Below are positions 46,735 to 64,000 of a stretch of DNA of 64,000 nt, in pieces. How positions within the stretch are numbered: position 1 is the stretch's first letter; every line of letters starts with the position of its first letter. The position numbers were made by a program, and so were the translations under genes. Source of the DNA: Candidatus Lokiarchaeum ossiferum (GTDB lineage: Archaea > Asgardarchaeota > Lokiarchaeia > Sigyniarchaeales > Promethearchaeaceae). The stretch covers positions 3,105,121 through 3,169,120 of the forward strand of contig CP104013.1 of NCBI GenBank assembly GCA_025839675.1, given 5' to 3'. A model generated the notes under the pieces. It worked only from the letters and a program-made list of their open reading frames with translations. It made no database searches and was not told the origin of the DNA.

Positions 46735-46855
46735 TGAATACGTAAATTTAAAGGTCCCGCATGAACAGCGGACCAATATGGTCCGTAAAAGAAAGTACCC
46801 CGGAACGGGGCGAAATCAAGGTGATGTGACCATCACCATCCAAAAAGACAAAATA
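46735..46855. ncRNA. Candidate structured RNA or leader element: a GC-rich island with four consecutive hairpins, two of them mutually exclusive
   Basis: ggtcccgc-atgaaca-gcggacc / ggacc-aatat-ggtcc share the middle ggacc arm. These are followed by ccccg-gaa-cgggg and ggtgatg-tgacc-atcacc. The surrounding intergenic DNA is AT-rich. Lies about 100 to 220 nt upstream of the PfkB kinase start on the minus strand. Confidence 0.25.
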
Positions 46856-47120
46856 AAATTCATGCGGAGACCAATATTCTAATAAATTCAAAGAATATAA
46901 ATTCTGAGATTATTCATGATAGGTTTAACCCCGTTATTTTGTTATGGATTACAAGAAATAGATCGAAAATTCAATTATGTCGGTCACCCTTATTTACCTT
47001 CCATCGGATTTAAAACAAAATCAATTCAAAATTTTAAGATATAATTAATATCTCGCAGGAAAGATCAGTATTTCTATTAACAATTTCCCAATACATGAAA
47101 AGAAAAAGAAAAAAAATACC

Positions 47121-47624
47121 TTAACTATAATCGTAGATAAATCCAACAGGGAGTTTGATCCCTAATAATCGTATATATAAGGTTAATTGTCCCCGATGAT
47201 GCACAACTTCTTCCTGAATTGTCATCAAGGCTTGGATTCCAGCTAATTTGAATCCATGCCAACAATGGAAGGTAATTTCTTGCTGCAATTTGTCTTCTGT
47301 CAACGATTCAAGTGTTTCGTGGAAGTAAGTCTTTATTTTCTTTATATAATCTTTAATTTGATCCAGTGTAGCACCTGTTTTTGGGGTTGGAATTTCTGCA
47401 AAATCTTCATTTTCCAATTTCCCTTTTCGTACTGCTTTCGAATAGGCAAATACCATCTCATACATATGTGCCACCAATTCCCCTAAAGATAGAGAGCTTT
47501 CATCCCCACAGGGTTTAAAATTCACAGCATCTTCAGAAATTTTGGTCAGTAGTTTATCGACGACTTTCATTTGGTTGTTTAACAAATGTAATAATGTTCC
47601 CTTAACGCTCTGTAATTGCGACAT
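47121..47624 (-). CDS. DinB/YfiT-like four-helix-bundle protein (putative metal-dependent hydrolase)
   Basis: 167 aa with conserved His positions (ELVAHMYEM...HCWHG...VHHRGQ) typical of the DinB_2 family. Confidence 0.4.
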   Translation of the reverse strand: MSQLQSVKGTLLHLLNNQMKVVDKLLTKISEDAVNFKPCGDESSLSLGELVAHMYEMVFAYSKAVRKGKLENEDFAEIPTPKTGATLDQIKDYIKKIKTYFHETLESLTEDKLQQEITFHCWHGFKLAGIQALMTIQEEVVHHRGQLTLYIRLLGIKLPVGFIYDYS

Positions 47625-47691
47625 ACATTAAATAGAACATATCCTATATTTAAGACTTGGTGGATGAAAATTTATCAGATCCCAAAAAGAA

Positions 47692-48207
47692 TTGAAATTT
47701 TTTTTCATGAAATTAATATACTTTTACACTTGTTATTCTATCATGACCAATCCAGCAGTGGTACGCAAAATCAATCCTGATGAACTGGACCAATTATTGG
47801 AGCTCTACTCCTATTTTCCCTCAAACGTTGAACCCCTACCCTCTCCCGATATTATTCAAGTAACATGGAATTCCATCATGGTCAATCCACATCTTCATTA
47901 TTTCGTTGTTGAATATGATAATAAGCTCGTTTCAACTTGCAACTTAGCCATCATCCCGAATTTAACTCATGGAGTCCGACCATTGGGTCTTATAGAAAAT
48001 GTCGTCACCGCTAAAGCCTATGAAAATCATGGGTTTGGGCAAAAGGTGCTCCACTATGCCAAAAAATGGGCTAAAAAACATCGCTGCCATAAAGTGGTCT
48101 TACTCACTGGTTCCAAACAGCCGCGGACTTTAAAATTTTATGAAAAAGCAGGATTTCAACGAGGGATAAAAACAGGGTTTGTCTCCACATTAGATGATGT
48201 CGTGTAA
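47692..48207 (+). CDS. GNAT family N-acetyltransferase
   Basis: Motif A HGFGQKVLHYAKKWA. C-terminal KFYEKAGF. Confidence 0.8.
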   Translation: MKFFFMKLIYFYTCYSIMTNPAVVRKINPDELDQLLELYSYFPSNVEPLPSPDIIQVTWNSIMVNPHLHYFVVEYDNKLVSTCNLAIIPNLTHGVRPLGLIENVVTAKAYENHGFGQKVLHYAKKWAKKHRCHKVVLLTGSKQPRTLKFYEKAGFQRGIKTGFVSTLDDVV

Positions 48208-48228
48208 TTCCCCAGAAATACAAATCAT

Positions 48229-48570
48229 CTATTTTTGATCTCTCGATGAATAGATAATAAATCCTTTCTTGCGCAATATATCAAACCCTATTTTTTTATA
48301 CATTTTATGAGCTCGTTCATTGGCTGATCCTGACAACAGCATTACCTCGGTACACTTTTTATCCCAGGCAAAGTTCAAAGCATGATTCACTATGGCCTTC
48401 CCGTAACCGTTGCGACGATAATCTCTATGGATCACCACATGTTCAAGAAACCCATAACCATCCCCACCCCGAATGAAAGAGGGTGTTATGGTCAAAATAA
48501 AAGAAGCAATTATTTTCTTATCTTCTTCTCCAATGAAATAGGTAATACACGGGCTTTTCTGTACTTGATC
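48229..48570 (-). pseudogene. GNAT acetyltransferase, apparently disrupted (in-frame TGA within a region coding GNAT-like sequence)
   Basis: The annotated ORF starts at a TTG. In the same frame upstream, ...QENLEIWDQVQKSPCITYFIGEEDKKIIASFILTITPSF... continues GNAT-like sequence after a TGA stop, and no plausible Met is present. Confidence 0.4.
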
Positions 48571-48768
48571 CCAGATCTCTAAATTTTCTTGTCATTTAAT
48601 AGTGGGAAATTTTCTTGGCTTGCATAATGATGATAAAGCGGAATTAATTTTCCGATTTCATCCTCGTTGATTTTTCGTATCTCCACACCAACTTTCCTCT
48701 GGTATCACTAATGATATTAAATTAAGAAATAACCTTGTTTTCAAAGGGAATTAAAAGGAAAGAGAAAT

Positions 48769-48827
48769 GGCGCAGGTGTCAGGGATCGAACCTGCGACCT
48801 GCCGATTAACAGCCGACCGCTCTACCG
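48769..48827 (-). tRNA. Partial tRNA-Asn(GTT)-like gene: 3' portion only (D-stem 3' strand through acceptor 3' strand plus CCA). No 5' half found adjacent.
   Basis: The reverse complement reads GGTAGAGC-G-GTCGG-CTGTTAA-TCGGC-AGGTC-GCAGG-TTCGATC-CCTGA-CACCTGC-G-CCA. Upstream sequence lacks the acceptor 5' strand and D-stem. Confidence 0.5.
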
Positions 48828-48966
48828 AAGATGTACCATATGCACTCAAATACATAATTCTTAACACCAAAATTCCTAGAAAATTGCTTGGCGTAAGATT
48901 TCGAGTATAATCCTTCTCTATGATAAAGTTTTAATTAATCAAAAACTCAAAAAAAAAAGAAAAAAA

Positions 48967-51900
48967 TTAAACAATTTCAATCCAAAAAGCTTTTGTTCCA
49001 TGATAATCTATGGTGAAAGTCTTAGCAAATAAGTCGGTGTCCGAAGGAATAAATGTCTCAAATTTTAAAGAAAATGATTCTCCTTCTTCAAATTTTAATT
49101 GAGATTCAAATTTAAGAGTTATCGGCCCAACAGGAATTGTGGTCCAAGCACCATAGTTTCGATTATACTCATGATCATTCACCATTTCAATTTCCCAAGG
49201 ATTATTTGGTAATAACTCCTCAGTTATACCGATTTGTTCACGTTGAGAGTAATATTGAGATCTGGGATCAAAAGTAATCCCTGGATAATCTGTATTGAAT
49301 TCACCTAAGAATTTTCTGAAGCGAAGGATTTCTTTGCTAGGATCTTGCTCCAAAATAATCCTTTGATAAGCGTGAACAGAATTGGCATCTTCGTATTTGT
49401 ATCCTATTCCTTTAACGTTTCCCCAATATTCAATTCCAACTATCACATCTTCTTCAATATTAAGGATAGGATTTTTAACAGTGAATGAGACTTTTTCTAA
49501 TTCCCCTAATTCAACATCAATACCTGCACCTCCTGTATCTTTAGATCCAATAGAAACACCGGCTTTTAGTTCAATTTTTTTTGTAGAAAAAGATGTTAAA
49601 CCTGGTGTTATATCCCAATCCAAATTAATCCCATTTGGAGATGTTGGAATATAGATTCGATATTCTGGAATGACAATCTTTTCAGAAGATATCAAATCCA
49701 CCGAATTTTCAACTGCCTTTCCAAGTTTTATGTTATCCATATAGACTTGGAAGGAAGCATCATTAGTATTACTTGTATAGATTTCGAGTTCCGTTACATC
49801 CCACATTTCAGTGCTGGCACGAGGTTCATCAGCGATCTTCACACCATCAACCCAAGCTTGCCATTGATTATTATCCATATCCATTAGTAAATCGATTTTA
49901 TACATGCGATTTGATTCTGGCAAACAATAAATATCATCAGGACCAATATAACTGTTGCCATATACATCATTAGTGACCGAAAGAACGTTTTCTGGAAAAT
50001 CACCATAAGTTTGGTGCAAACTTAATCTAATATAATCTTCGTAGGAAACAATATCATTATCTTTGAAAATGATTGTAAAATCTGGAATGCCAGTGTATCC
50101 GATTTCAAATGTGAAAAGATATTTTCCATAATTATCCATTTCAATATCTTTACTAATTTTCACTTTTTTATTATTTAAAATTCCTCCAGTACTGGAATCT
50201 ACAAATTCTATAACCCTTCCATAATAATCAGTTATTGGAGAAATTATAACATTAACAGAACAATCTGTTCCTTCAGAAATAGTATAACCAGAAGGATTTG
50301 TTCCAATACCTGCATTCTCATAATTATCCGTAACAGGGTATCCAGCATCCTTTGGATTAGAAAAATACAACTTGATCTCGTCATCATCAGTAAACCCATC
50401 ACTATCAGTATCTTCTAATCCAGGATTCGTAGTAAGTTCATAATGCTCATATCCGTCATTATATGTATCACCATCAGAATCTGGATTTGTAGGATTAAGG
50501 TTCACATAACCTTCATATTCATAGATGCCAGTAGCTTCAGAGCTTAAATCATCTCGTACAAAATCTAATTCTTGCTTATCAGTCAATCCATCAAAATCTG
50601 AATCAATTTCTGAGGGATTAGAATAATATGTTTTGTAGAATTTTGGTCGAGAATTTGGATCTGAATAAATTAAATCATATCCAGTTACTTCTTCGCTATC
50701 AGTTAAACCATCTTCATCTTTATCTGCTAAAGCATTCAAAGGATTTGTATTGTATACTAAAACTTCATCTCCATCAGATATACCATCATTATCTGAATCA
50801 GAATCACTTGGAGATAAATCATCTAACCTAGAATAATGAGCTTCATAGTTTCCATCCCATATATTAAACCAATTATAAGAATATTCTTCATAATTGGACA
50901 AATCATCATTATCAGTATCCCTATCCACATTTGGAAGATGGAAATAGCTTCTGTATCCTTCAGAAGATACTCCTAACCCATCAATTCCAAAATTCATAGC
51001 ATCATATCCACTATGTGTGTACATCCCAAGCGAGTTGATGTAGGAATAAGAAAGAACTGGAATATCACTTCCCACTTTTTGACCATCAATCCAAGCATCA
51101 ACTTGATTATTGCTGAAATCTAATTCAATGTGAACTTGATACCATTGATTCAATTGATAATCAAGAATTGGAATCCAAGTTCCTGTATCTCGTCTAATTC
51201 CAAGATGACCACCCCAGATTGGCATGTAAAATGGTTGTCCTGATCCGTGAAAAGTTAGATATGCATATCCATTTGATGAAGGCGATGGAGAATACCACCA
51301 GAAGTCAATAGAATCACCATCCTGACTCATAGTATTAAAACTGACAGAAGCGGTTGGACTTGTTGTTGGTGTGTTTCCTTGGGCAAGATATAATGCATTG
51401 GGATGATTTTCAATATTTTTAATTGTTGCAGTTGCTGTTCCAGGATTATAAGTCCACTCTTGCCAATTTGTGGTTCCAATTATTTTGAAGCTTTCAATAT
51501 CGGGATGATTTGAAAATGCTTCATACCCTTGGGAGGAAACTCCTAAACTATCAAATCCAAAATTCATTTTTTGTTCAGTACCCTGTGTATACATGAAAAT
51601 ATTGTCAATTTCAGAATATGGAAGCACTGGAATATCTGATAGAGTTTTTATTCCATTTGCCCATAAATCCACTTCATTATTTGTGAAGTCAAATTCAACG
51701 TGCATATGATACCAGGTTGACCATTCAAAATTGAAATATTCCCATGCACTTGTATCCTTTCTTATTCCAAAATGATTTGACCATATTGGGAAGTAAAAGG
51801 GCCGTGAACTCCCATCTTGCAAGCAAATATATGCATAACCAATCGTATCGGAAGAAGGAGAATACCACCAAAAATCAATATAATCATTATCTTGATTCAC

Positions 51901-53325
51901 CGCAGGAAAAGACACAGCTACAGTTGGACTAGTTATTGAATTAACATGATCTTCTTGGGAAAGATAGAGAGAAGTCGGATGATCTCCAATATTCGTAATA
52001 GTAGCAACTTCCGTCCCAGATTGAATATTAAAATCATTCCATTCAATACTATTTTCAACAAAGAAGCTATCAATCGTATAATGATTATTATAAGCTATAT
52101 ACCCTTCAGAAGACACACCCAGAGCATCAAAGCCAAAATTGGTATCACCAAGATCACTGTGGATATACATATTGATGGAATTAATGAAGGAGTAATCTAG
52201 GACTGAAACATCAACAAGTGATTTTTCCCCATCAACCCATAAATCCACTTCATTATTCGTAAAATCAAATTCAACATGCACATGATACCACGTTGAATAA
52301 TCAAAATTGAAGTAGTTACTCCAGCTTCCAGAACTATCGCGAATTCCAAAGTGATTAGCCCATATAGGAAAGTAGAAGGGTTGTCCTGTATCTTGTTTAA
52401 ATGTAATATATGCGTACCCATCGGAACCAACTGAAGGCGAAAACCACCAAAAGTCAAGATAATCTTGATCGTCATTCAATGTATTGAAATTAATGGATGC
52501 TGATGGATTAGTGGTTACTGGATCTTCTTGAGATAAATAGAGTGCATTATAGCGGCCATCAATATCAGTCAATACCGCTAATTCTGAACCTTGAGATATA
52601 CTCCAGCGGTTCCAATCGATGCACTCACTTTGATCATATCCTATCCCACTACCATCCATAGGATTTAGAGGATTTAAATTATTGATATATTCCCATCCAT
52701 CAGGCATTCCATCTTGATCTGTATCCATATTGTTGGGATCTGTTCCCAAAGTATTCGTTTCGAGCCAATCATTTAACCCATCATTATCAGTATCATCAAC
52801 AAGATAAACGTAAATCGACTCAATTCTTTTTCCTGTTAAGTAAAAGCATTCTTCCCCATCAGCATATTCGGGAGAATCACCTAAGGATTGAATGTGTCCA
52901 CGATATCGGATTTGATATTTATACTCAGGACAGTTTACTAGTCGAATTGCAAATTTTTCAATCTGTAGTGCCTGTCCTCTTGTTCCAGCATAATTTCCAT
53001 CACTTATCCACTGTGTCCACCCATTTCCTTGAATATATACTTTGTATTCAATGTCACAATCAAATGTATTGTCTACAATACTTAATTGAATCCCTTCTAA
53101 TCTTTTTGCAATACCTTTATGACCAACCCATTGGTGGTCAGTTCCAACAATATCCCCATAGGATTGTTGATGAACCAAAACGGATAAAATTTGGCTACTA
53201 ACGTTTGGTACGTTCAACTCCCTTTGAGATTCTTCTTGATCCTCTGTAAATCCAAATTCTCCAGAATTGGATAGAGTTAGGCTAAGAAGAAGTAAAAATG
53301 CAATATATTTTTGTTGATTTTTCAT
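48967..53325 (-). CDS. Giant secreted or surface protein (1452 aa): signal peptide, thrombospondin type-3-like Ca-binding repeats, three tandem ~190-aa lectin/ConA-like repeats, C-terminal beta-rich domain
   Basis: N-terminus MKNQQKYIAFLLLLSLTLS is signal-like. Repeats DFWW(F/Y)SPS...GYAY...PFYFPIW.NHFGIR...WYH.H.EFDF.NNEVD occur three times (about nt 50913 to 52617). Asp-rich DxDxDG motifs are present (DTDNDGLNDWLE, DSDNDGISDGDE, DSDGDTYNDGYE, DTDSDGFTDDDE). Confidence 0.8.
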   Translation of the reverse strand: MKNQQKYIAFLLLLSLTLSNSGEFGFTEDQEESQRELNVPNVSSQILSVLVHQQSYGDIVGTDHQWVGHKGIAKRLEGIQLSIVDNTFDCDIEYKVYIQGNGWTQWISDGNYAGTRGQALQIEKFAIRLVNCPEYKYQIRYRGHIQSLGDSPEYADGEECFYLTGKRIESIYVYLVDDTDNDGLNDWLETNTLGTDPNNMDTDQDGMPDGWEYINNLNPLNPMDGSGIGYDQSECIDWNRWSISQGSELAVLTDIDGRYNALYLSQEDPVTTNPSASINFNTLNDDQDYLDFWWFSPSVGSDGYAYITFKQDTGQPFYFPIWANHFGIRDSSGSWSNYFNFDYSTWYHVHVEFDFTNNEVDLWVDGEKSLVDVSVLDYSFINSINMYIHSDLGDTNFGFDALGVSSEGYIAYNNHYTIDSFFVENSIEWNDFNIQSGTEVATITNIGDHPTSLYLSQEDHVNSITSPTVAVSFPAVNQDNDYIDFWWYSPSSDTIGYAYICLQDGSSRPFYFPIWSNHFGIRKDTSAWEYFNFEWSTWYHMHVEFDFTNNEVDLWANGIKTLSDIPVLPYSEIDNIFMYTQGTEQKMNFGFDSLGVSSQGYEAFSNHPDIESFKIIGTTNWQEWTYNPGTATATIKNIENHPNALYLAQGNTPTTSPTASVSFNTMSQDGDSIDFWWYSPSPSSNGYAYLTFHGSGQPFYMPIWGGHLGIRRDTGTWIPILDYQLNQWYQVHIELDFSNNQVDAWIDGQKVGSDIPVLSYSYINSLGMYTHSGYDAMNFGIDGLGVSSEGYRSYFHLPNVDRDTDNDDLSNYEEYSYNWFNIWDGNYEAHYSRLDDLSPSDSDSDNDGISDGDEVLVYNTNPLNALADKDEDGLTDSEEVTGYDLIYSDPNSRPKFYKTYYSNPSEIDSDFDGLTDKQELDFVRDDLSSEATGIYEYEGYVNLNPTNPDSDGDTYNDGYEHYELTTNPGLEDTDSDGFTDDDEIKLYFSNPKDAGYPVTDNYENAGIGTNPSGYTISEGTDCSVNVIISPITDYYGRVIEFVDSSTGGILNNKKVKISKDIEMDNYGKYLFTFEIGYTGIPDFTIIFKDNDIVSYEDYIRLSLHQTYGDFPENVLSVTNDVYGNSYIGPDDIYCLPESNRMYKIDLLMDMDNNQWQAWVDGVKIADEPRASTEMWDVTELEIYTSNTNDASFQVYMDNIKLGKAVENSVDLISSEKIVIPEYRIYIPTSPNGINLDWDITPGLTSFSTKKIELKAGVSIGSKDTGGAGIDVELGELEKVSFTVKNPILNIEEDVIVGIEYWGNVKGIGYKYEDANSVHAYQRIILEQDPSKEILRFRKFLGEFNTDYPGITFDPRSQYYSQREQIGITEELLPNNPWEIEMVNDHEYNRNYGAWTTIPVGPITLKFESQLKFEEGESFSLKFETFIPSDTDLFAKTFTIDYHGTKAFWIEIV

Positions 53326-53794
53326 TTTATAACTTCCAGATCAAATTATTCTGACTTAAGACAAATTTTCCTCTAAACTAAAAATCACTAATTGTGTAAA
53401 ACCCCTACCATATGAAAAAGTCGCACAAATTTTTCGGATCATGAGCTAAAATTACTCTCGAAAAAAGACTTTTTGATTTTTGGATCAAATTACTGATTTT
53501 TTTACTATCTGTCCAAATCTGAACATTACTAATATAGTTAAAGAGGTATTTAAACTGCACGTTGTTAGTAAAACGCTATGATTTTTATTGAATAAATATT
53601 TAAAATAAACTTATTCCTATAATTCATTAATTACTTCAATTTTTTACCTTTTCAACAAATTTAAACTATTTATGTTACAAGTCATAATTCCACATTCAAT
53701 TCCCTGTACTTGTAAAATAATTTAGTGTTCAAGCTTCCAATTCTAACTCAAACATTAAATTATGCTCGGATGATAGGACTTAACTTGAAAAAAA

Positions 53795-56014
53795 TTACTT
53801 TAACTTCAGTTTAATATTGTCAATTAATTTTTCTTTGATAAATCCCTCTTCTCGAATTAATCGAAAATATTGCCCTTCCTCAAATTTAAACCCAAATTGA
53901 TCCCCACACTCCATGAAAACTTTGTGGCGCAATACCTTCCCAGGAAAATGTTTCCACTCTTCACCACTGGCAACTATTTCCTGTATTCGGTCTGAATATT
54001 TTGCAAACTGTTTGAGATAATACGGTTTATCTACAGATATATGACATTTTTCGCTGGTTAGTATATTCACAGTATTAAGAAAATTATCCAGCAATTCATT
54101 TTCCGATGTTGTACCACCCTTGATTCCCTCGATTATCGGTTTTATTAACTCTTTTTTTTCATCCTCCGAAAATACCTTTGGAAACTCCTCGAAAAAGAAT
54201 TTCAACTTCTTTGTCATCTTCATTGTCTCATCGATAGAAGTTTTGATTAGATTAGACACCTTTTCAAGGGTAATCTCTTCCTCTGAATCTGGATTGGATC
54301 TTTCAATAAGTTCTTTGAGTAGCTCAGGATTGAGGTATAAATTTTCGATTTCCCGCACTGGGAGTAGTACAATTTTATCTCGGATTTCTTTTGCCTTCTT
54401 ATTGCGAATTTCCTTATTACCTTCATCATTATCCAAAATAATGAGAAATTTGAAGTTTTTATTGGTAAAATTCTCTATCAACTGTGCATTTGCCCAATAA
54501 TGTAAATCTCGTTTGCCTCCTAACGGTTGTAGTATGATTCTTTGCTCTTCTAAAATTTCCGGAATTGCTTGTTTGAAAAACTCTACATCATCCTTTCCTT
54601 CCACCAATATCATCCCATTATTCATGAGATAATCTGAAGGTTTGATGCCTAAATCTTCAAAAACTTGTGGTATATTTTCTGCTTTTTCATTATATACATG
54701 AGTTATTTTATCACTTCGTTTTACCCTATGAATGCTCCATCCCTTTTTCATACTATCCAAGAAATATGGTGAATGAGTAGTAATTAAAACTTGAAATCGG
54801 CTCAAATTTTCCTCGATTATTGATAGGAGTATTTTTTGCAAATCAGGATGTATAAAAAGTTCCGGTTCTTCAATTAACAGCAATCCATTTTCTTTTGTTT
54901 CTAATATTGCAACTAAAATTGTTACCAATTGCTGAATCCCCTTCCCCAATTTGTCAAAAGTAAGTTTGTACTCTAAATCTTCTTCTAATACATAAGGAAT
55001 TGTCAAGGGATATTTCTCAATAGGAATGTTTGTTTCTGGGTAATAATCAATATTATAAAGAGAATAATCTGGTTGATGTAAAAAATTTTGATTGATCTCT
55101 TTAATATTAGGATACAATTTGCTCAGATAGTGGTTGAGTTTTTCTAATTTTTCTTTCTCATTTGTGTTATAGCTAAGAATTTTTAGTGGGACATTTTCTC
55201 CATCATATTCAAAATGAAAAGGCTTTGTAGAAGCCTCCACCTTATAGAATGGTAGGAATGAACGATCTTCAACTACCATATTCATCTTGGAATAGAAATC
55301 TATAATCGGTGATAAGAAAAAGTGCAATAAAGGATTGCTATGAACTCGTTTATCAAAAATGGATCTATTATTCAGAAGTTGATTGCCAGGATTCGGAAAT
55401 CCAGTATTGAAAATCGAATTTGGAAAAAAATGCCATTCAAATGAATTACTATTAGCAATGAGTTTTTTCCTTGGTTTGCTAAGTTCCATGTTTCTAATAG
55501 AATATTCATGTCCTACTGAAGTCCTATCCACAAAATTATAGGAAATCAGTCCATTTTTGAAAGTAACTCTTCTAATAAAAATTTCATAACTTGACCCAGG
55601 AGCTACTTCAAATTCATATACAATATTTTCAAATGCCTCCTCTAATAATATCGATTCCTCAGGGTTGAATCGATTATCTTTGAAAAATTTAAATAATTTT
55701 GGGTTTTTCAAGTAGTCTTTTGAATGTTCCCTAAATAGCCTTGATGCTTGATCACGAAAATATTCCAAAATCTTTGATCTATCAAATTTGAATTCTAAAT
55801 TTATCTTTACCGGATGCTTCTGGGAATTGAACTTAATCAATTTTTTATCTAAAAGCTTCCCCGACCTTATACTCTTTAAAATTTTAAATAAATTGCTTTT
55901 CCCTGAATTATTAGGTCCAATTATAACGCCTAAATCCCCAATATTCTCGAATACTTGGTGATCGAAACTTAGCAGATTGAATATTTCTATTCGATGCAAC
56001 CGCGAAATTGTCAT
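53795..56014 (-). CDS. OLD-family nuclease: N-terminal ABC-type ATPase plus C-terminal TOPRIM domain (class 1 OLD / Gabija GajA-like)
   Basis: Walker A GPNNSGKS, Walker B LLLIEEPELFIHP, H-loop ITTHSPYF. TOPRIM MILVEGKDDVEFF and ILDNDEGNKE (DxD). Confidence 0.8.
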   Translation of the reverse strand: MTISRLHRIEIFNLLSFDHQVFENIGDLGVIIGPNNSGKSNLFKILKSIRSGKLLDKKLIKFNSQKHPVKINLEFKFDRSKILEYFRDQASRLFREHSKDYLKNPKLFKFFKDNRFNPEESILLEEAFENIVYEFEVAPGSSYEIFIRRVTFKNGLISYNFVDRTSVGHEYSIRNMELSKPRKKLIANSNSFEWHFFPNSIFNTGFPNPGNQLLNNRSIFDKRVHSNPLLHFFLSPIIDFYSKMNMVVEDRSFLPFYKVEASTKPFHFEYDGENVPLKILSYNTNEKEKLEKLNHYLSKLYPNIKEINQNFLHQPDYSLYNIDYYPETNIPIEKYPLTIPYVLEEDLEYKLTFDKLGKGIQQLVTILVAILETKENGLLLIEEPELFIHPDLQKILLSIIEENLSRFQVLITTHSPYFLDSMKKGWSIHRVKRSDKITHVYNEKAENIPQVFEDLGIKPSDYLMNNGMILVEGKDDVEFFKQAIPEILEEQRIILQPLGGKRDLHYWANAQLIENFTNKNFKFLIILDNDEGNKEIRNKKAKEIRDKIVLLPVREIENLYLNPELLKELIERSNPDSEEEITLEKVSNLIKTSIDETMKMTKKLKFFFEEFPKVFSEDEKKELIKPIIEGIKGGTTSENELLDNFLNTVNILTSEKCHISVDKPYYLKQFAKYSDRIQEIVASGEEWKHFPGKVLRHKVFMECGDQFGFKFEEGQYFRLIREEGFIKEKLIDNIKLKLK

Positions 56015-56114
56015 ATATTATTAGTTTTGGACAAAGGTGTAGTTAAATTTTTAGATTAAAACTCAATTTCCTTTAAACTTTGATAAGGAAAAAAAAAACA
56101 CGTATATAATTAAA

Positions 56115-56420
56115 TCAATATCCATATTTTTGCATGATATCAGTAATATCTCTTCCATAGTATTTCACGTAGGCCACAATTCGCCCATAGGTATCAATCG
56201 CCACTTGTTTAATGGTAACCAAAGATCCTACAGGTATTAAAGAGGATAATATTCTTTTTGCTTTGAAATAACCAGATTCTCCCTTTTCAGGTGTGTTAAT
56301 ATTAGCAATTCGAACATATTTATTACCCGTTATAATGAAAGTATCTCCATCTACAATCGCAGCTACTTTTTTTCGATATATATTTGATGTTGGGTATTTC
56401 TTCGAAATTGAAGATGTCAT
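56115..56420 (-). CDS. Staphylococcal-nuclease (SNase/thermonuclease)-like protein, short form
   Basis: VDGDTF...VRIANINTPE...YGRIVAYV follows the SNase OB-fold motifs. Overlaps the upstream gene by 4 nt (ATGA). Confidence 0.6.
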   Translation of the reverse strand: MTSSISKKYPTSNIYRKKVAAIVDGDTFIITGNKYVRIANINTPEKGESGYFKAKRILSSLIPVGSLVTIKQVAIDTYGRIVAYVKYYGRDITDIMQKYGY

Positions 56421-57049
56421 ATTTTATCACCTCCATCCAAACTCCTAAGATATGTTTTAAATTGATTTTCTGAAAGCGCAAAGCAGTTATTAGAATTGTG
56501 ATACTTGTTAATATCTAGCAACCGCTCGTCAGTATAAAAGGAACCACTGCAAATGGCATAAAACTGCCCAGATTCATTTGATTCCGAATTTTCAAACAAG
56601 CGAACAATATTTTGCATCCTACTTGATTGAGAACCTCCACTCCCATCTGAATGAAATCGAACAAAATAGGACCTCTTTCCTTTAATTTTACATGAAAGAT
56701 GAATTGAACTTGATTTTACATTCAATCGCTTTTTTGTGATCTTTCCGTCTGTAATGTAGAGTCTTGGAGTTCTCCAATGAGTGATCAAATTTGAAATAAA
56801 AGTCTGGTTGGTCAGATATTTCGTAAATTCCCTCAGATAAGTATTTCCTCGCTTCAAATTTAGGTCCTTACTTACGCATATTGCAGCGAATAATTTATCT
56901 TCAAGAAATTTCTGTTCTATATCCTTAATTGGAATTCCCGTACGGTCATGTAACCGGATAAGCTGTTTTACCTTATGGCCCTTCATAATTCTCTTCCGAA
57001 TTATGGAGATTTGCGTGGTGACGTCCTTTCTAATCTGAAATTGGTACAT
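56417..57049 (-). CDS. Hypothetical protein co-transcribed with the SNase-like and OLD nuclease genes
   Basis: 210-aa basic protein with no recognisable motif. Shows translational coupling (4-nt overlap) to the SNase-like gene. Confidence 0.4.
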   Translation of the reverse strand: MYQFQIRKDVTTQISIIRKRIMKGHKVKQLIRLHDRTGIPIKDIEQKFLEDKLFAAICVSKDLNLKRGNTYLREFTKYLTNQTFISNLITHWRTPRLYITDGKITKKRLNVKSSSIHLSCKIKGKRSYFVRFHSDGSGGSQSSRMQNIVRLFENSESNESGQFYAICSGSFYTDERLLDINKYHNSNNCFALSENQFKTYLRSLDGGDKI

Positions 57050-57288
57050 TAATTAATTACTTCCTTTACTGAGTGGTGGTTTGTGTGTGACAGAATCAAT
57101 CCTTCGAGTAAGCTATTTGATCAATCTACGTTGACTTACGCGCGCGATCGTTACCCGTTACAATAACGAAGGTCACACGCGTATTTAAATCAAGGTATTT
57201 ATAGAGAAGTACCCTTCCTCAACCGACAAAAATTCAAAAATTTCACTGTTGGATAGAAAAACACGCAAGAATTCCAATATTTCATAAT

Positions 57289-58161
57289 GTGAATATTTTT
57301 AATATTTCACTCGTACTGTTAATATTGTTAGTGAAAAAAAAAATGAATTCCTTAGATTTAGTTGAAGAACGAAATATTTTAGTCGTTCCAATCGGTTTAG
57401 AAAATGAGCGGGTTGTTAAAAGCTGCCAAATTTACCCTGTGAACGTCATTTATCTCTTGAAGAGTAACTTTGAATCTAATTCTGATCATAAGGAAAAAAA
57501 CTCATCCCAATGGGGAATAGAACAATACTCAAAAACAATTGCATCTGAAGTCATTAAGAAATTTGAAAATACTTTTTTTGAAATTCAACCAAAAAATTGC
57601 CATCTCGGCTCCCTCCCGAGCACAATTTCTATTTTAAATGACATCTATGAAATTGAACAGAAAAAGGGAAAATTGAACAAAATTTACATCAATATCTCCA
57701 CCGCATCCAAATTATTCGCAATTGGGGCCTATATTTTTGCCTCTCAATTCCCCGATATATGCAAACTTTTCTATTTGGCCACAAATAATTATCTTCTCTT
57801 GGAACACTTGAAATCGGAAAAAGGGGATTTAGAAAAATTAAAAACGGAATTTAGAAAATTTGGTCTAACAAAAGGACCTTTCAAAGTTGTGAACATCCCA
57901 ATTCTGAAATCGGACCCTTTTTCAACCGATGAAAAACGATTGATCAATTATTTAGCCCAATTTGACCACATCAATTCGATAAAAGAAATATTGGAAAATC
58001 TCAAAAAGGATACCAACGCTAAAGAAAGAATGAATCTTCGCAGATCCCTTGAAAAACTCGAGAAAAACAATTTGCTGATACTAAAAAAAAGTGGAAAATC
58101 GGTTCAGGTTCTTATATCTGATGAATTGAAACAGCTCGCTGGCTCCTTTATACTGGAGTAG
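57289..58161 (+). CDS. Putative CARF-like (Rossmann) N-terminal domain plus C-terminal winged-helix regulator (Csa3-like architecture)
   Basis: ILVVPIGLENERVV (beta1 plus Gly loop) and NISTASK (a CARF dvTgGtK-like motif). C-terminal INYLAQFDHINSIKEILENL...NNLLILKKSGKSVQV resembles a wHTH. Confidence 0.3.
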   Translation: MNIFNISLVLLILLVKKKMNSLDLVEERNILVVPIGLENERVVKSCQIYPVNVIYLLKSNFESNSDHKEKNSSQWGIEQYSKTIASEVIKKFENTFFEIQPKNCHLGSLPSTISILNDIYEIEQKKGKLNKIYINISTASKLFAIGAYIFASQFPDICKLFYLATNNYLLLEHLKSEKGDLEKLKTEFRKFGLTKGPFKVVNIPILKSDPFSTDEKRLINYLAQFDHINSIKEILENLKKDTNAKERMNLRRSLEKLEKNNLLILKKSGKSVQVLISDELKQLAGSFILE

Positions 58162-58200
58162 CTTATATTCCGCTGTAATTCTTATACGATTCATTCAATT

Positions 58201-59241
58201 TTAAAATAATATCGCAATCACAATCGCCAAAATGGACAGGACCAACTCAATGCGCCATTTCGAAGTTTCTTTCCTATATTTCCGTTTCTCCATTGCATTT
58301 TCAATTCCATCAATGAAATTCTTCAACTCTTCTACCACTTGATCTGGTTCTTGGTTCTGTTTCGAATTGAAATGATATATATACCATGTTTTAACCTTCC
58401 CAAAAATCGCTTTCCATTCGTGTAGCTTTTCCAGTGAAAATATTTCATCATGTAAATCAATCGATATTTCATTCAGCTCTTCCTTATCAAACCCGGTCCC
58501 ATAATATAACTCAATCCATTTTCCATTATTTTGCTTGATTGTTTCAACTATCTCTTCGGAAGGTATCTTTTGTGTAAAAATTTGTCGATATTCTTCAACA
58601 AGATCATTTTCTTTTTCATAAACCCTTAATAAGATAAGATTCTTCGCATTCTCCAAGTTATTAAAGCAAAAAGTGAAATAATTCCTAAAAACTGCACAGA
58701 TATTCACTAGTACGAATACTATAAGACTTATATAAACAAATAGTAGATAATGGTCTTGAGTTTTGATTACAGCATAGTATCCAAAGGCTATAGTGCCTAT
58801 ACTGATAAAAATACTGAAAAGCGTTGAAAAAAAGAGAATATTATGATTCTTATCCTTCCTTAAAAAACTGGTTGAATATTTCAAAATCTGTATTTCCCTT
58901 TCTATTGTTTGTTTTGTATCCTTCGTATTCTTCTTGTCGAAATAATCTAAAAAATCTGAGAGAAATTCATAATTTTTTTCAGTATCCTCGACATTATATG
59001 GTAGTTCTTTCTTTGAAATCCAATAAGAAATTAAAATCCTAAGAAAAATTATAATGACGAATGTCCAAATTATTAATCCTTGCTCGTTTTCATCGAAAGA
59101 TCCTAATATTAAGATCATGCAAAAAATAATTCCATTAATTATTCTGGTTCCTGGAATTTCTGACTTAAATGTGGAGACTTTTTCTTCATATTCCCCGAGA
59201 ATTTTCAAAATATCATTTTTATTTATCTTTTTTTGATTCAT
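58201..59241 (-). CDS. Multi-pass membrane protein (about 5 TM) with a cytoplasmic acidic domain; hypothetical
   Basis: Hydrophobic helices at about aa 33 to 53, 57 to 77, 131 to 151, 157 to 177 and 322 to 344. No catalytic motif recognised. Confidence 0.45.
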   Translation of the reverse strand: MNQKKINKNDILKILGEYEEKVSTFKSEIPGTRIINGIIFCMILILGSFDENEQGLIIWTFVIIIFLRILISYWISKKELPYNVEDTEKNYEFLSDFLDYFDKKNTKDTKQTIEREIQILKYSTSFLRKDKNHNILFFSTLFSIFISIGTIAFGYYAVIKTQDHYLLFVYISLIVFVLVNICAVFRNYFTFCFNNLENAKNLILLRVYEKENDLVEEYRQIFTQKIPSEEIVETIKQNNGKWIELYYGTGFDKEELNEISIDLHDEIFSLEKLHEWKAIFGKVKTWYIYHFNSKQNQEPDQVVEELKNFIDGIENAMEKRKYRKETSKWRIELVLSILAIVIAILF

Positions 59242-59737
59242 CTTATTAAATTAATTGGATTATTATGGATTTTAAGCCATTTATTAGGACTTTAATACAT
59301 TCCATCATTTCTCGATTTATATATGGATAATCAAATTTTTTGAAATCCATTAGAACCGAATGTGTGAGATTTTTTTTATTTTAAATGATTAAAATAGTTC
59401 TAATCAGTAATTTTAGAAAAAAGTCATGGAAACGACCAATTGACAATCAATCGCAAAGTAAATCAATCATGAATTTTAAGAAGAGGCTAAAAGCGCAAAT
59501 GGAAGACTAATAGACTTATAATTAAATGATAACCAATTTTTTTTTTTATTTTCGATTATTAAATGATTCTACTTATTTTTTTTAATCAAGATGGAAAGCA
59601 TGTGGGTGCACAATTTTTTAATCCAAATTTTTTTTTACAAATCTATAATTTTCATTAGTAAAATTGTGTCTATTAGTTTGATTTGAAACATAGGACTGAT
59701 TGATTTAAAATTTGATTCAAATACTTGGGTTTTTGAT

Positions 59738-60421
59738 ATGAAAAAAAAAATATTTGCATATTATCGGATTTCAACTGAGAAACAAAAAAAAAAGAATACT
59801 CAGGAAAATCAGAAAATTGCAATTTATAATTTTGTTGAAGGTTTAGACGTTGAAATTGTGAATGAATTTGAAGATTTGGGTATTTCAGGGGCAGATAATG
59901 ACCGCCCACAATTCAATCTAATGCTTTCTAAATTGAATGAAGTAGAAGGATTAGTAATCTATGATTTAGACCGATTAACGAGAGATTTTGAAATGGGAGT
60001 AAACTTAATGTTTATGTTGAAAAATTCAAAAAAATCTTTGTATATTGCTCGAACCAAAGATATCAAAGATTTTTCAGATGATTCCGAGCAATTAATGACC
60101 ATTATCAAATCATGGGTTTCTGCACTTGAACGAAAGAAAATTAAAGAAAGACAAAAAATAGGAATTCAACGATATAAAGAAACAAAAGGTCGTTGGGGTA
60201 GAAAGAAATCCTTTGGAAAATATAAAAATCCAGAACAATTTTGGAAAAACTATGATATCTATAGAGATTTGGGTATTTCCAAGACATCCTGTGCAAAATT
60301 ATTAGGTGTCTCTCGTTCAACGATGAATAGACGGATAGAAGAACGTGAAATAAATAAGTCGAAAATCAAAACTACCCCAATTAATAACAAAATCAAAGAA
60401 TGGAGCGAACCAAAACTTTAA
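59738..60421 (+). CDS. Small serine recombinase (resolvase/invertase type): catalytic domain plus C-terminal HTH
   Basis: IFAYYRISTEKQ (catalytic Ser motif), DRLTRD, C-terminal HTH ISKTSCAKLLGVSRSTMNRRIE. Confidence 0.8.
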   Translation: MKKKIFAYYRISTEKQKKKNTQENQKIAIYNFVEGLDVEIVNEFEDLGISGADNDRPQFNLMLSKLNEVEGLVIYDLDRLTRDFEMGVNLMFMLKNSKKSLYIARTKDIKDFSDDSEQLMTIIKSWVSALERKKIKERQKIGIQRYKETKGRWGRKKSFGKYKNPEQFWKNYDIYRDLGISKTSCAKLLGVSRSTMNRRIEEREINKSKIKTTPINNKIKEWSEPKL

Positions 60422-60688
60422 AGGAAGTTTTTTTTATAAATTACTCTAATAATCGCTATATCGAAGAATCGAAGAAAAATTGAAATGTTAACGGTAAATT
60501 GAGCTTCCAGAGTGGCTTTTTCTAATTTCTGTCGGCTAATTTTTAAAGTAAAAGGATGAATAACACCTAAGCCCACCGGCCAAGGTGTTATAGAAGAAAG
60601 CCCACCGGCCATCTCCATGTTATTAATCTTCAAGAAAGTATTTAAAGATCACCATACATGTTTTTTATAGGTTTATTTAAAATCAAAA

Positions 60689-61477
60689 ATGATTAGAATG
60701 ATTATTGCATATCTTGACGAAACTGGAGATCCTGTCTATCGAAGGGGTGGCCCTAAATGGTTTGGTATAACTGCCGCAATCTTTCATGATTCAAAATTAC
60801 TTGATGGAATAAATGTGATGAAGTCATTCAATCAAAGTAAATCCGAAGAATATGACTGTGATTTTGAAATACATGCAAGGGAATTTTCCAGCTCGAAAAA
60901 AGAACCTTATAATGCAATGAAAGTTGAAGAAAAAATAGAATTATTTACAGAATGCTTACATACTGTCAAAAATACTGGTGCTTCAATTTGCGGTGTGTTT
61001 GTTGATAAAGTTAAGCATAGTTATTGGCATGGTAAATATGATTTTTTAAAAAATGTAGTTATGAACCTATTTGAAAGGATAGGTAGATATCAGATTGCAA
61101 ATTATCCTAATGAAGCCATTCTGATATTATATGACCAACCTTCTGCCCATTTAAGACCAATTATTAAACAATATTTCAAAGAAAGATTAGAAGTCGGTTC
61201 AAGATATGTCAAACCTGCGTTTTTCTTGAAAGAAATCTTATATGTTGAATCTAAATTTCATCAACCTATTCAAATAGCAGATTTAACAGGATATATTGTA
61301 AGAAGATTGATAGAAAAACGTATAGATGGTACATTTTCCAGTTTTCTAAAGTATGTTGATGACTTGTATAAAATAATTCGACCAATGTTAGATTTCAATC
61401 CAACAACAAAAGAAATATATGGGGCAGGAATTAAAATTATTGAAAGTAATGACAGGAAATATTATGGACGTTTCTGA
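60689..61477 (+). CDS. DUF3800-family protein
   Basis: Hallmark N-terminal IAYLDETGD and C-terminal PIQIADLTGYIV motifs of DUF3800. Confidence 0.7.
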   Translation: MIRMIIAYLDETGDPVYRRGGPKWFGITAAIFHDSKLLDGINVMKSFNQSKSEEYDCDFEIHAREFSSSKKEPYNAMKVEEKIELFTECLHTVKNTGASICGVFVDKVKHSYWHGKYDFLKNVVMNLFERIGRYQIANYPNEAILILYDQPSAHLRPIIKQYFKERLEVGSRYVKPAFFLKEILYVESKFHQPIQIADLTGYIVRRLIEKRIDGTFSSFLKYVDDLYKIIRPMLDFNPTTKEIYGAGIKIIESNDRKYYGRF

Positions 61478-61513
61478 ACAGAGTGTTTGCTTAACCAAAT
61501 ATGAAAATACCTT

Positions 61514-61870
61514 TTATGGATCCAAAAATTTTCTTTTTCGGTTATTTGCCGTTATTTTCTTATAATTCTCAGTAGTTTCTCTTACGTTATCTATTCCAGT
61601 ATCAATTAAGATTTGTTCAAATTTGCTACTTAAATTTTTGAATTTTATTGCATTATCAGCATAAGAATCAATATATTCATCAGGTTTTTTTTCAGGTTCT
61701 TTATTAAGGAATTTTAATAAGGAATATGATTTTGCCCCATGTTCAGCAGACAATTGGGCTTTGTGGTCGAGTTCTTCATATTTATCATAAGTAGCCGCAA
61801 AAATTGCATATAATTCAATTAAATCTAAAGGAATATTTAAAATTGGCATTTCATCTTCTTCAAAAGACAT
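61514..61870 (-). CDS. Hypothetical acidic protein
   Basis: 118-aa ORF convergent with the DUF3800 gene; no motif recognised. Confidence 0.35.
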   Translation of the reverse strand: MSFEEDEMPILNIPLDLIELYAIFAATYDKYEELDHKAQLSAEHGAKSYSLLKFLNKEPEKKPDEYIDSYADNAIKFKNLSSKFEQILIDTGIDNVRETTENYKKITANNRKRKFLDP

Positions 61871-62036
61871 AATTGCATTAAAAAAATAACGGATAAAAAG
61901 TTTAGTTCTTTTTTTCGGTTCCGATTATCTGGTATACGGTTCCGAACCCTTTAGAAATAGTTAATTTGTCATCCTTCTTCAGAAAATATCTACTAATGTC
62001 GGTTCCGAATTGATTTTGCTAATAAATGGGACCGAA

Positions 62037-62063
62037 ATTAGCGAGATTAGCGAGATTAGCGAG
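62037..62063. repeat. Perfect tandem repeat 3 x ATTAGCGAG (9-mer), next to four copies of a GG(T/A)(T)CCGA(A)TT motif at 61916 to 62036
   Basis: Read directly: attagcgag attagcgag attagcgag. The upstream tcggttccgaatt motif occurs twice, plus ggttccgattat and gggaccgaaatt. Confidence 0.8.
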
Positions 62064-63052
62064 TATTTCAGACAATAAGGTGATTTCATCACCCCACGTG
62101 ATATTTTTTCTTGGATTGATTCTAAGAATCGCAAATATGGACAGAAAATAGAAAAAACCCCTATTGGGTGATATGTTCAGTTTTCAAGCAAATCCCTTCC
62201 GCCGCGACACTTTCCTTTTTATCCTAAAAATCGAGAAGAGCTTAATTCTATTAACAAGAATTTAATTTCGAGCGTAAAGTCTGTTTAAATTCCTCAAATT
62301 TTTCGGTTACTCATTTTTTGCCAATTATTTCTCTTTTATTTAAAAAATAAACTTGATTGCTCAATTTATTATGCCATTTTAGAATAAGTATAAATGATAT
62401 TTATATCTACATATAAACTGAATTTATACATATCTATATATTATGTTTATTATTGAATGAAATTGGATAATTATATAAGACTTAATTTAATTATAATATA
62501 TTAGAGACGATTAATTTTTCTGACTCTTTTCTAGGTGAATATAAATGTTAAAAAAAGAAAAAAAATTGCAAAGAAAGAAGCTCAGTGCATTTAAAAATAT
62601 TAAAGAACTTCTAAAACGAATACTAGCTTATATCGTGTTAAAAAAACTGATTTCCATAATAGAATTGGTTTTGCTTTAAACCATTTGTGTGAGTTTTTTT
62701 TTTTTTTTTTTTAATAATTTTTTCTAAATTTTTATTTCTGTCTTAAAAAATTAAAGTGAATTGCTACATTATTGGCTATACCAGTGTTTTATCATAAGAA
62801 TCCACTATGTCGACTCAATCATATCCTAATTTTCCTAAAATTTGACCCAAAAGCATTTTATCAAATCTAAAGTATTTCAAAATGATTATGCTATTCATAT
62901 TGACCAAAATCAAATCCCCTTCAGTTTTATAATCGAGCTTGAATTTGATAATCAATATATGACACATGTTGGATAATCTGAGATTTGAACAAATTTGTAG
63001 TTACATATTGCTTGTGATTAATGATTGTTGGGACCAAGTAACTTTTACAATA

Positions 63053-63083
63053 GAAAGAGGAAATGGCACAGGTGACATGGACC
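63053..63083. repeat. Imperfect direct-repeat copy of the tRNA-Asn 3' end plus flank (partner at 48758 to 48793); candidate att-like boundary
   Basis: GAAAGAGGAAATGGCACAGGTGACATGGACC versus GAAAGAG-AAATGGCGCAGGTGTCAGGGATCGAACC at 48758; about 26 of 29 aligned positions match, same orientation. Confidence 0.45.
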
Positions 63084-63217
63084 TAACTCGCTGATTACAC
63101 TATATCTATACGTAGACGTTTCATTTTCAAAAATAATTTGTAGGACGAATCCATCATTTCATGCATTGACTCCCTTAATCAAAACTATAAATACACATCC
63201 TAACAATTACCTATTAG

Positions 63218-63748
63218 GTGTTTGAAATTCCGAAAGATGATCTCAATCAAGAAAAAGTCGACTACTTAAAAACCGTCTTCTCCCACAATCGCAGTATGAT
63301 CCAACTTGCAGACAACAAAGCCAGCATTTTAATCCGAATTATTGTAGTTATCCTCCCAATTATTTTTGGAATCGATTCCTACTTAACTACAATTACTCTC
63401 CATAATAGCCTAAAAACCTTTCAATATGTTAGCTTTATCATTTGTATGGTTACCTTCATCATTTCATTCTTCTTATCGACAGGTGTTCTAATGGCTCGAT
63501 TTGCTGAATATGATGATCATATCTTCTTTTCAAATATTGAAAAAGATTCCCTTGAAGATTATCAAAATATTATTGAAGAAATGGATGATTATGTCATTTT
63601 TGAAGATTATATCAAAGAAAATTATGCAATTGCCAAAATCAATAAAAAAAAGTATCAATGCTACAATATTTCCTTTTGGTTCCTTAATGCTGCGGTACTT
63701 TTATTGGTAATTCGATATATCTTATTGTTTACTTACCTTTTTTATTAA
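63218..63748 (+). CDS. Small membrane protein with 3 predicted TM helices and an acidic central loop (hypothetical; possible effector-like)
   Basis: Hydrophobic helices at about aa 36 to 58 and 68 to 92, and a C-terminal one at about 150 to 172. N-terminal MIQLADNKAS motif. Confidence 0.45.
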   Translation: MFEIPKDDLNQEKVDYLKTVFSHNRSMIQLADNKASILIRIIVVILPIIFGIDSYLTTITLHNSLKTFQYVSFIICMVTFIISFFLSTGVLMARFAEYDDHIFFSNIEKDSLEDYQNIIEEMDDYVIFEDYIKENYAIAKINKKKYQCYNISFWFLNAAVLLLVIRYILLFTYLFY

Positions 63749-64000
63749 ATCTCAATTAAATTTTCTTTTTTTATGTCTCTCTCCCACTATACGCAAATAT
63801 CTTGTAATTTTTCAATTCTTGAAAATTTGACTTCATTTTCCGAAAATATGAACAACAATAAAACGGAGGTTCAATTTCCTCACAATTATCTTTCTTTTCC
63901 TTGGATAGTTGAAAGAAAACATCGTACCCAATGCAAATCGTGATTTTTTCTTTAAAAGAAGCATGCTTTTTTCCAATGGATTCTAATCTCTTCGCTGCTA

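Follow-up and report, generated by a model that had tools for sequence, protein, structure and literature searches.

The chromosome of strain B35 of Candidatus Lokiarchaeum ossiferum, one of very few cultivated Asgard archaea, carries the 3′ half of a tRNA-Asn gene with no 5′ half next to it, and this raises the question of whether the DNA beside the fragment is an integrated element and where such an element would end. The fragment lies in a 64,000-nt stretch of chromosome CP104013.1 (hereafter the window; coordinates above 64000 are given as window-equivalent) of the 6,035,313-bp B-35 genome; the window has a GC content of ~33%, holds an archaeal large-subunit (LSU) rRNA gene, and left of 48.7 kb comprises housekeeping genes, i.e. 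those for RPA, PCMT, ThiI, PAC2, a PfkB kinase, DinB and GNAT. An initial annotation had proposed an integrated island of ∼14 kb between the fragment and an imperfect copy of the tRNA 3′ end near 63 kb. Our analysis indicates that the window interval is very probably the larger part of a 15,867-bp strain-specific defence island residing in the 3′ part of a single-copy-looking tRNA-Asn(GTT) gene; the proposed island itself thus stood, but its size is 15.9 kb and not 14.3 kb, and its right end lies outside the window.

The tRNA-Asn site and the two ends of the island

By searching with the flanking PfkB kinase, an identical protein was retrieved on a second Ca. L. ossiferum chromosome, CP163304.1 (6,274,825 bp), and a homologue of 85% identity on an ENA contig of 47 kb (NODE_272, here L006) of a relative with ∼85% DNA identity. 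CP163304.1 probably represents the sister strain B36, which has a genome of >6.2 Mb and 97.2% average nucleotide identity to B35 (Maslac et al. 2026, bioRxiv 10.64898/2026.02.13.705702). Its sequence (pieces L008 and L020) aligned to window 40779–48828 at 98.7% and stopped exactly at 48828, and its right flank had no match anywhere in the window. The genes on CP163304.1 are ordered as PfkB, DinB, GNAT, a second GNAT, tRNA-Asn, an intron-bearing tRNA, a 333-aa Roadblock-like protein, tRNA-Leu, Tsr3 and thermosome, and its tRNA-Asn is an intact, continuous gene scoring 68.7 bits with the Rfam tRNA model. In L006, an intact tRNA-Asn was found at the same syntenic place with no island genes. Thus, both relatives display an empty site with an intact tRNA-Asn, as the initially proposed insertion would predict. 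In addition, the 90% identity clusters of the proteins from the island interval (NEF87_002675 to NEF87_002687; in accession order from the 1452-aa protein UYP46390 to PycTM, UYP46401, and PycC, UYP46402) hold only members from B35 and from Logan contigs, the latter assembled from enrichment cultures, while the host flank proteins also have B36 (XEO) accessions. Because no B36 members occur in the clusters of the island proteins, the island is absent from B36 and not relocated there, and it is a true presence/absence island.

At the left end, the distal attachment (att) repeat, DR-L, occupies 48754–48828 on the minus strand, where 14 nt of the tRNA-downstream flank plus nt 16–76 of tRNA-Asn(GTT) form a 3′ fragment that is non-functional and passes into host DNA on its left. 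Alignment with the intact tRNA-Asn of the two relatives defined window 48768–48828 as tRNA nt 16–76 including the encoded CCA, and the minus-strand reading from 48828 to 48768 is TCGGTAGAGCGGTCGGCTGTTAATCGGCAGGTCGCAGGTTCGATCCCTGACACCTGCGCCA. Two substitutions, nt 39 C>T and nt 65 T>A, distinguish the fragment from the intact genes; tRNA nt 1–15 are replaced by unrelated DNA, and no tRNA-Asn 5′ part occurs elsewhere in the window, verifying the initial description of a 3′ half without a neighboring 5′ half. ARAGORN detected no tRNA anywhere in the window, and the Rfam tRNA model scored only 17.2 bits at 48771–48843 (−), below the gathering score of 29. The tRNA-Asn 3′ end pattern had no match in genome and metagenome contig collections, which apparently do not contain L. 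ossiferum. The GNAT gene adjoining the distal copy (48229–48700, −) has acquired a stop codon in B35 that leaves only an 88-aa open reading frame (ORF); its orthologue is intact in the sister strain (152 aa, L008 7450–7908) and appears disrupted in L006 too.

The right end was determined by using two Logan contigs, which are 100% identical to window 62172–64000 (L018) and 62737–64000 (L019) and extend past the window end through the Pycsar cyclase gene PycC; a complete tRNA-Asn(GTT) follows ∼150 nt beyond, and then the host flank. ARAGORN placed this tRNA at L019 1899–1974, namely window-equivalent 64635–64710 and 635 nt past the window end, so that an intact tRNA-Asn, which the initial annotation had suggested looking for elsewhere in the genome, is indeed present. 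Together with the host upstream flank it spans window-equivalent 64635–64724, and L019 1885–1988, which takes in the tRNA with 14 nt of flank on either side, matches B36 DNA at 100% identity. Comparison of the two ends revealed 75-nt direct repeats with 72 of 75 nt identical, at window 48754–48828 and L019 1885–1959 (window-equivalent 64621–64695), and the distance between them (64621 minus 48754) defines an insert of 15,867 bp. Integration has duplicated 75 nt, i.e. tRNA nt 16–76 and the 14 nt downstream of the gene; the functional-looking tRNA at 64635–64710 is made complete by the proximal copy, and the distal copy is a dead 3′ fragment abutting host DNA. All three differences between the repeats (nt 39, nt 65 and one flank base) are in the distal, non-functional copy, and may stem from attP, if the crossover took place near the outer repeat end, or from later decay; three changes in 75 nt, set against a local divergence of 1.3%, do not choose between these origins. 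All Logan contigs seen represent the integrated form.

Two other features were observed around this site. In the empty-site genomes, an intron-bearing tRNA (105 nt, Rfam 43 bits) is encoded on the strand opposite to tRNA-Asn, ∼200 nt upstream of it (L008 8265–8369, +; L006 ∼6440–6550), and a spurious 58-aa ORF is called over the L006 copy. Beyond the tRNA-Asn region, B35 has a second strain-specific segment outside the window (L021 1226–6607, NEF87_002688–002694), which begins 21 nt after the 333-aa Roadblock-like gene and encodes an EFR1-type ferredoxin, two RHH/CopG proteins, a 151-aa protein, an acidic repeat protein and an 839-aa HerA/FtsK-like ATPase (PADLOC mad8 6e-14), the last having no relatives in IMG/VR.

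An internal tRNA-derived copy and a probable composite island

The imperfect second copy of the tRNA-Asn 3′ end, described by the initial annotation at ∼63.05 kb in the same orientation, was recovered as a degenerate att copy (copy 2) at 63052–63094 (−), comprising ∼15 nt of flank and tRNA-Asn nt ∼49–76. Window 63052–63086 matches 48757–48790 in the same orientation at 29 of 35 positions with one gap, the match reaching ∼10–15 nt past the tRNA 3′ end into the flank, and weaker similarity runs on to ∼63094. Its blastn raw score was 36 (E 2.6e-4), versus 22 for the next best non-self match in the window. When blastn was applied to 200 first-order Markov random windows of the same dinucleotide statistics, the best scores had a mean of 23.4 (sd 1.7) and a maximum of 32, and none of the 200 reached 36, so the similarity exceeds what chance yields in such AT-rich DNA. 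However, copy 2 failed as the right bracket of the island, the role initially given to 63.05–63.09 kb: no DNA right of 63090 matches the right flank of the sister chromosome, and the Pycsar gene pair comes next.

These data also bear on another explanation, namely that the fragment represents one half of a tRNA gene that is split or interrupted by an intron, or that the repeats are chance matches of AT-rich sequence. Unusual tRNA introns do exist in B35, as in the D-loop of tRNA-Leu(CAA) at 13416–13549; however, a complete and uninterrupted tRNA-Asn is found 15.8 kb away, the sister gene is continuous, the window contains no 5′ exon, and the repeat scores are far above random. With none of the random windows attaining the observed score, the complete tRNA-Asn at hand and 72 of 75 repeat positions identical, this explanation was rejected as hardly conceivable. 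The tRNA-Leu(CAA) itself (+) carries an intron of ∼49 nt (∼13440–13488) and escaped detection by ARAGORN and, with either threshold, by Rfam, being recognized only through its similarity to the B36 tRNA-Leu; tRNA counts made by standard tools for the B35 genome will consequently be too low.

Copy 2 has T65 and the TTG flank end in common with the proximal copy, and from its sequence is best described as a junction of the type 'tRNA end plus flank, then element DNA'. We infer a composite island, in which copy 2, as a decayed third att copy, would be the scar between a module E1 (14.2 kb) and a module E2 (1.5 kb). E1 (48829–63051), located between att copies 1 and 2 and absent from CP163304.1 and L006, contains cargo and a putative backbone, while E2 (∼63095–64620) contains the Pycsar genes only. 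Copy 2 departs from the tRNA sequence at 6 of its 35 aligned positions (∼17%), which far exceeds the 1.3–2.8% divergence between B35 and B36, and it therefore predates the split of the two strains. The composite would probably have formed earlier, by accretion at the att site in another lineage, and would then have arrived in B35, or left the sister strain, as a unit.

Elements are well known to accrete in tandem at the att sites of tRNA genes, and the 14.2 kb interval (48.77–63.09 kb) could instead be a complete mobile unit, with the Pycsar pair as a separate mini-element accreted in place in B35. This would agree with copy 2 being a real att-like sequence in the right orientation, and with E1 holding all of the backbone-like features, i.e. 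the recombinase, the iterons and the AT-rich tract. Against it, both comparison genomes are without E1 and E2 together, the well-kept pair of repeats brackets E1 plus E2, and a copy with 6/35 differences could hardly have been made in place after two strains with 1.3–2.8% divergence had split. We regard such stepwise assembly in B35 as improbable, though a serious contender, and retain the composite island that moved as one unit.

Recombination genes and the mode of integration

The only recombinase in the island is a 227-aa small serine recombinase of resolvase/invertase architecture (59738–60421, +; Pfam Resolvase 3.3e-28; PHROG DNA invertase 1e-36 over the full length), encoded 2.6 kb from the nearest att copy. 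Its Resolvase domain covers residues 6–149 with a YRISTEKQ motif providing the active-site Ser, followed by a helix-turn-helix at residues 176–202. It aligns end to end with the Tn3 (residues 5–202) and gamma-delta resolvases, whereas the match to TP901-1 and CcrB is limited to the catalytic domain, the large C-terminal domain lacking in the 227-aa protein. The closest listed homologue, 70% identical, is encoded in a Promethearchaeum metagenome-assembled genome (L023) in a different accessory context, and the others are ≤41% identical; no tRNA-Asn-like sequence was found near the 70% or 41% homologues, no relatives occur in IMG/VR, and no convincing invertase-type inverted repeats surround the gene. 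The 500-nt AT-rich spacer upstream of the gene contains tandem repeats at 59260–59301 (20 nt ×2) and 59612–59642 (14 nt ×2.2), which are possible res-like binding sites and are not conserved upstream of the 70% homologue in L023.

If this enzyme were the integrase, E1 or the whole island would be self-mobile into tRNA-Asn, and the lack of any other recombinase in the island, together with a weaker PHROGs match to serine integrases (1e-28), could be taken in that sense. Serine recombinases, however, exchange strands at a 2-bp core, and neither need nor create 75-nt repeats. In its architecture and its alignment over the whole length, the protein corresponds to resolvases and invertases (∼190–230 aa) and is without the large C-terminal domain of serine integrases, the 70% and 41% homologues have no tRNA-Asn-like sequence close by, and the gene is 2.6 kb away from the nearest att copy. 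Because of the resolvase-type alignment and the homologue context, we did not rate it as the integrase and consider a self-mobile island of this kind quite unlikely; the protein would rather serve a plasmid-like backbone in resolution or inversion.

The search for another integrase was negative throughout. The island proteins were annotated with Pfam, PADLOC, NCBIfam, PHROGs and PDB, and no tyrosine integrase (Phage_integrase or SSV-type) was detected in any island ORF by Pfam, NCBIfam and PHROGs, nor were integrase remnants detected in stop-to-stop segments of the non-coding stretches, and sequence inspection revealed no partitioned SSV-type integrase abutting the att copies. Provirus hallmark genes (capsid, portal, terminase) were not found either, PHROGs giving only nuclease and invertase matches. 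The island had no relatives in IMG/VR, phage or plasmid collections; this held for the DUF3800 and OLD proteins described below in IMG/VR, and for the E1 backbone DNA in the plasmid and phage collections.

Two features of the putative backbone that had been pointed out initially, iteron-like repeats and an extremely AT-rich tract, were confirmed by a repeat scan, TRF and the sequence itself. The iteron-like cluster (61916–62063, +) consists of three copies of CGGTTCCGA, an exact 9-mer occurring in the window only at 61916–62008, followed by 3.4 copies of CGAGATTAG at 62033–62063 (TRF). The AT-rich non-coding tract (62330–62760) includes a T19 run and a 23-nt tandem repeat, and GC drops to 26–28% in 59–63 kb. 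The serine recombinase, its upstream repeats, the iterons and the AT-rich tract would together make a plasmid-style maintenance or resolution module, not an integration machinery.

When a tyrosine integrase inserts an element into a tRNA gene, the classical outcome is a copy of the tRNA 3′ segment with its flank at each end, as with the 61 nt of tRNA here, and repeats of a tRNA segment may also be generated by homologous recombination through a tRNA-derived attP. Either tyrosine-integrase-type recombination or homologous recombination via such an attP could have made the repeats, with the island inserting Campbell-style into the 3′ part of tRNA-Asn(GTT). With no integrase left, the island would now be an immobile, fixed remnant, or be mobilisable only in trans like a cis-mobilisable element (CIME). 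In a bolder version, the integrase-less composite would be still mobile and derived from a plasmid, to which the iterons, an AT-rich origin, the resolvase-type recombinase and DUF3800 would belong; it would move in and out of tRNA-Asn via an integrase supplied in trans, or through a novel use of its own serine recombinase or of the DUF3800 protein, and would carry defence cassettes between Lokiarchaeum strains by accretion at one att site. This version is unlikely in our view; if true, such a trans-hijacked, still-mobile island would live in a CIME- or satellite-like manner that has so far not been described for Asgard archaea.

Several points weigh against the arrival of a foreign composite in B35. 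Composition is almost host-like and gives no compositional proof of foreign origin: gene GC was 31.5% in the island versus 34.2% in the host (p 0.008), GC at third codon positions (GC3) was equal, and the tetranucleotide correlation was 0.94–0.97 versus 0.98–0.99. The comparison inside and outside the interval that the initial annotation had suggested thus gave a slightly lower GC but the same GC3, and was near-negative overall; the donor was probably another Lokiarchaeon. A gain in B35 is not formally separable from a precise loss along the lineages of B36 and L006, and the assignment of CP163304.1 to B36, probable as it is, was drawn from its size (6.27 Mb) and the preprint and not from the sequence record. 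That the composite came in a single step is argued solely by how far copy 2 has decayed, and no recombinase now present explains the 75-nt tRNA-derived att, the mode of integration being read back from the repeats.

The near host-like composition would also suit an ancestral region that the lineages of B36 and L006 each lost when the repeats recombined, and 75-nt direct repeats could mediate such a deletion. This history would however need two independent base-perfect losses, each restoring the identical intact tRNA, and would still require an earlier insertion for the duplicated tRNA part; furthermore, the island proteins have almost no relatives among 5.8 billion proteins. We consider it very unlikely. 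The empty-site evidence overrides the near host-like composition, and insertion of a strain-specific island into tRNA-Asn is the explanation that we prefer.

Cargo genes, host neighborhood and known systems

The gene content listed in the initial annotation, i.e. a giant lectin-like protein, an OLD-family nuclease operon, a CARF-like regulator, a serine recombinase and a DUF3800 protein, was reproduced by Pfam and PADLOC, and it is mobile-defence-type and strain-specific, unlike the housekeeping genes to the left. By domain content, Pycsar, the OLD/PARIS-like ATPase-Toprim nuclease with its SNase, and the CARF-like sensor with a membrane protein would all serve in defence. In module E2, the Pycsar transmembrane effector PycTM (UYP46401.1, NEF87_002686; 63218–63748, +; PADLOC PycTM 6.4e-22, Pfam PF18967) is followed by the 237-aa cyclase PycC (UYP46402.1; −; PADLOC PycC 5.8e-20), which has its 3′ part in the window at 63771–64000 and extends to window-equivalent 64484. 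The two genes run towards each other, their stop codons separated by 22 nt, and do not form one operon (window 63218–64000; L018 1320–2313). Upon infection, the pair would synthesize a cyclic pyrimidine, and the membrane effector would then kill the cell or arrest it.

In module E1, a minus-strand nuclease operon starts with a gene for a 210-aa protein (56417–57049, −), an ORF with no match in Pfam, PADLOC, NCBIfam, PHROGs or PDB, which is overlapped by 4 nt by the downstream gene for a 101-aa staphylococcal-nuclease-like protein (56115–56420, −; Pfam SNase 6.6e-6; PHROG endonuclease 4e-12); both are in one operon with the OLD gene. The latter encodes a 739-aa OLD-family/PARIS AriAB-like ABC-ATPase plus DUF4435 (Toprim) nuclease (53795–56014, −; Pfam AAA_21 1.6e-25, AAA_15 and DUF4435). 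The PADLOC matches of this protein were AriAB at 3.5e-28 (residues 364–693), Old at 6e-23 and GajA at 5e-13, so it resembles the fused PARIS AriAB and OLD better than Gabija GajA at the sequence level, and no GajB (UvrD-like helicase) was found among the island ORFs by Pfam and PADLOC. A 290-aa CARF-like (HFX_2341_N) putative regulator or sensor lies at 57289–58161 (+; Pfam PF19810 1.7e-15; PADLOC CARF3 2.7e-14), next to a 346-aa ORF with hydrophobic segments for a multi-pass membrane protein (58201–59241, −) that had no family match in Pfam, PADLOC, NCBIfam or PHROGs. At the left end, the 1452-aa secreted repeat protein NEF87_002675 (48967–53325, −) has a signal peptide, ChW and TSP3 repeats, and three CBM/lectin-like modules of ∼190 aa (Pfam), and is predicted to be adhesin- or lectin-like; its gene contains three diverged tandem repeats of ∼570 nt (51053–52517, 63–78% identical) that encode these modules.

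To the right of the recombinase gene, a 262-aa DUF3800 protein (60689–61477, +; Pfam PF12686 5.6e-11) had only two relatives of at least 57% identity in the search of 5.8 billion proteins, and a homologue 80% identical to it, P0266, is encoded on a 29 kb contig. The AlphaFold2 model of the DUF3800 protein, made from a 3-sequence alignment, had a mean pLDDT of 50. In the AT-rich spacer just upstream of its gene, a GC-rich element (60540–60625) contains a 9-bp hairpin, AUAACACCU...AGGUGUUAU, and AGCCCACCGGCCA repeated 29 nt apart, and a minus-strand ORF of 64–71 aa is called over it. At least 11 unrelated structured RNA motifs have been reported to accompany DUF3800 genes (PMC5737381); the hairpin had no match to the DUF3800-associated motifs in Rfam, and its folding z-score was only −1.76. 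A 118-aa ORF at 61514–61870 (−) had no family match.

Part of the island content has probably been published already. Two Pycsar systems clustered with a 'Gabija' operon have been described in B35 and not in B36, and nearly all B35 defence proteins were detected in the proteome (Maslac et al. 2026, bioRxiv 10.64898/2026.02.13.705702). The cluster in that preprint is very probably the island locus, and its text mentions no island, att site or tRNA-Asn for the Pycsar and 'Gabija' systems.

In the host part of the window, the LSU rRNA gene (3137–6321, −) is 3185 nt long versus 2987 nt of the model and has no adjacent small-subunit rRNA gene in the window; the extra length may come from rRNA expansion segments. 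Two host proteins bear eukaryote-like signatures, namely a RING-finger (zf-RING_2) protein (40627–41181, −) and a Ras/Roc-family small GTPase (15368–15895, −).

B35 and B36 are the first pair of sister strains, one of them with a cultivated virus, and the base-exact ends now define a 15.9 kb block that holds much of the strain-specific defence repertoire of B35 and explains why two strains from the same sediment have differing immune systems. The tRNA-Asn and the neighboring tRNA region thereby stand out as a hot spot of gene flow, and the 75-nt att together with the natural empty site is usable for excision PCR assays or as a landing pad for genetic tools.

Among known systems, elements with pNOB8- or SSV-type integrases, the Thermococcus TKV elements and bacterial tRNA-linked islands all occupy tRNA genes, usually by means of a tyrosine recombinase. 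The B35 island shares with them the insertion into the tRNA 3′ part, a direct-repeat duplication that keeps the tRNA intact, strain-specific presence, and accessory or defence cargo, whereas no tyrosine integrase, whole or partitioned, is found by its att copies, and hallmark genes of viruses or of conjugation were not detected. For ICESt1/ICESt3 of Streptococcus, both CIMEs and arrays accreted in tandem at att sites have been described. Like CIMEs, the island consists of att-flanked modules without integration genes of their own, has an internal att scar and would in principle be excisable in trans; it differs by its archaeal host and its putative mobility, and no helper element that encodes a fitting integrase is known. 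Strain-variable, clustered defence genes in an Asgard host are likewise known from integrated mobile genetic elements and defence islands of this group (PMC11529989; Wu et al. 2022, PMC8813620); the Atabeyarchaeia elements among them encode tyrosine integrases and have short att motifs of 11 bp (Valentin-Alvarado et al. 2024, PMC11529989), in contrast to the integrase-less B35 island with its 75-nt repeats. As for the cargo, PycC adjoins PycTM as in Pycsar, but in a convergent rather than a co-oriented operon arrangement; the 739-aa protein has the same order of ABC ATPase and then DUF4435/Toprim as the OLD, PARIS and Gabija proteins, with fused AriAB as its best PADLOC match, and its operon partners are the SNase-like and 210-aa proteins in place of the UvrD-like GajB of Gabija. 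The general surprise is hence low, since the locus is conceptually an ordinary, standard tRNA-linked defence island, made mildly unusual by the missing integrase, the nested att scar and the resolvase-type recombinase.

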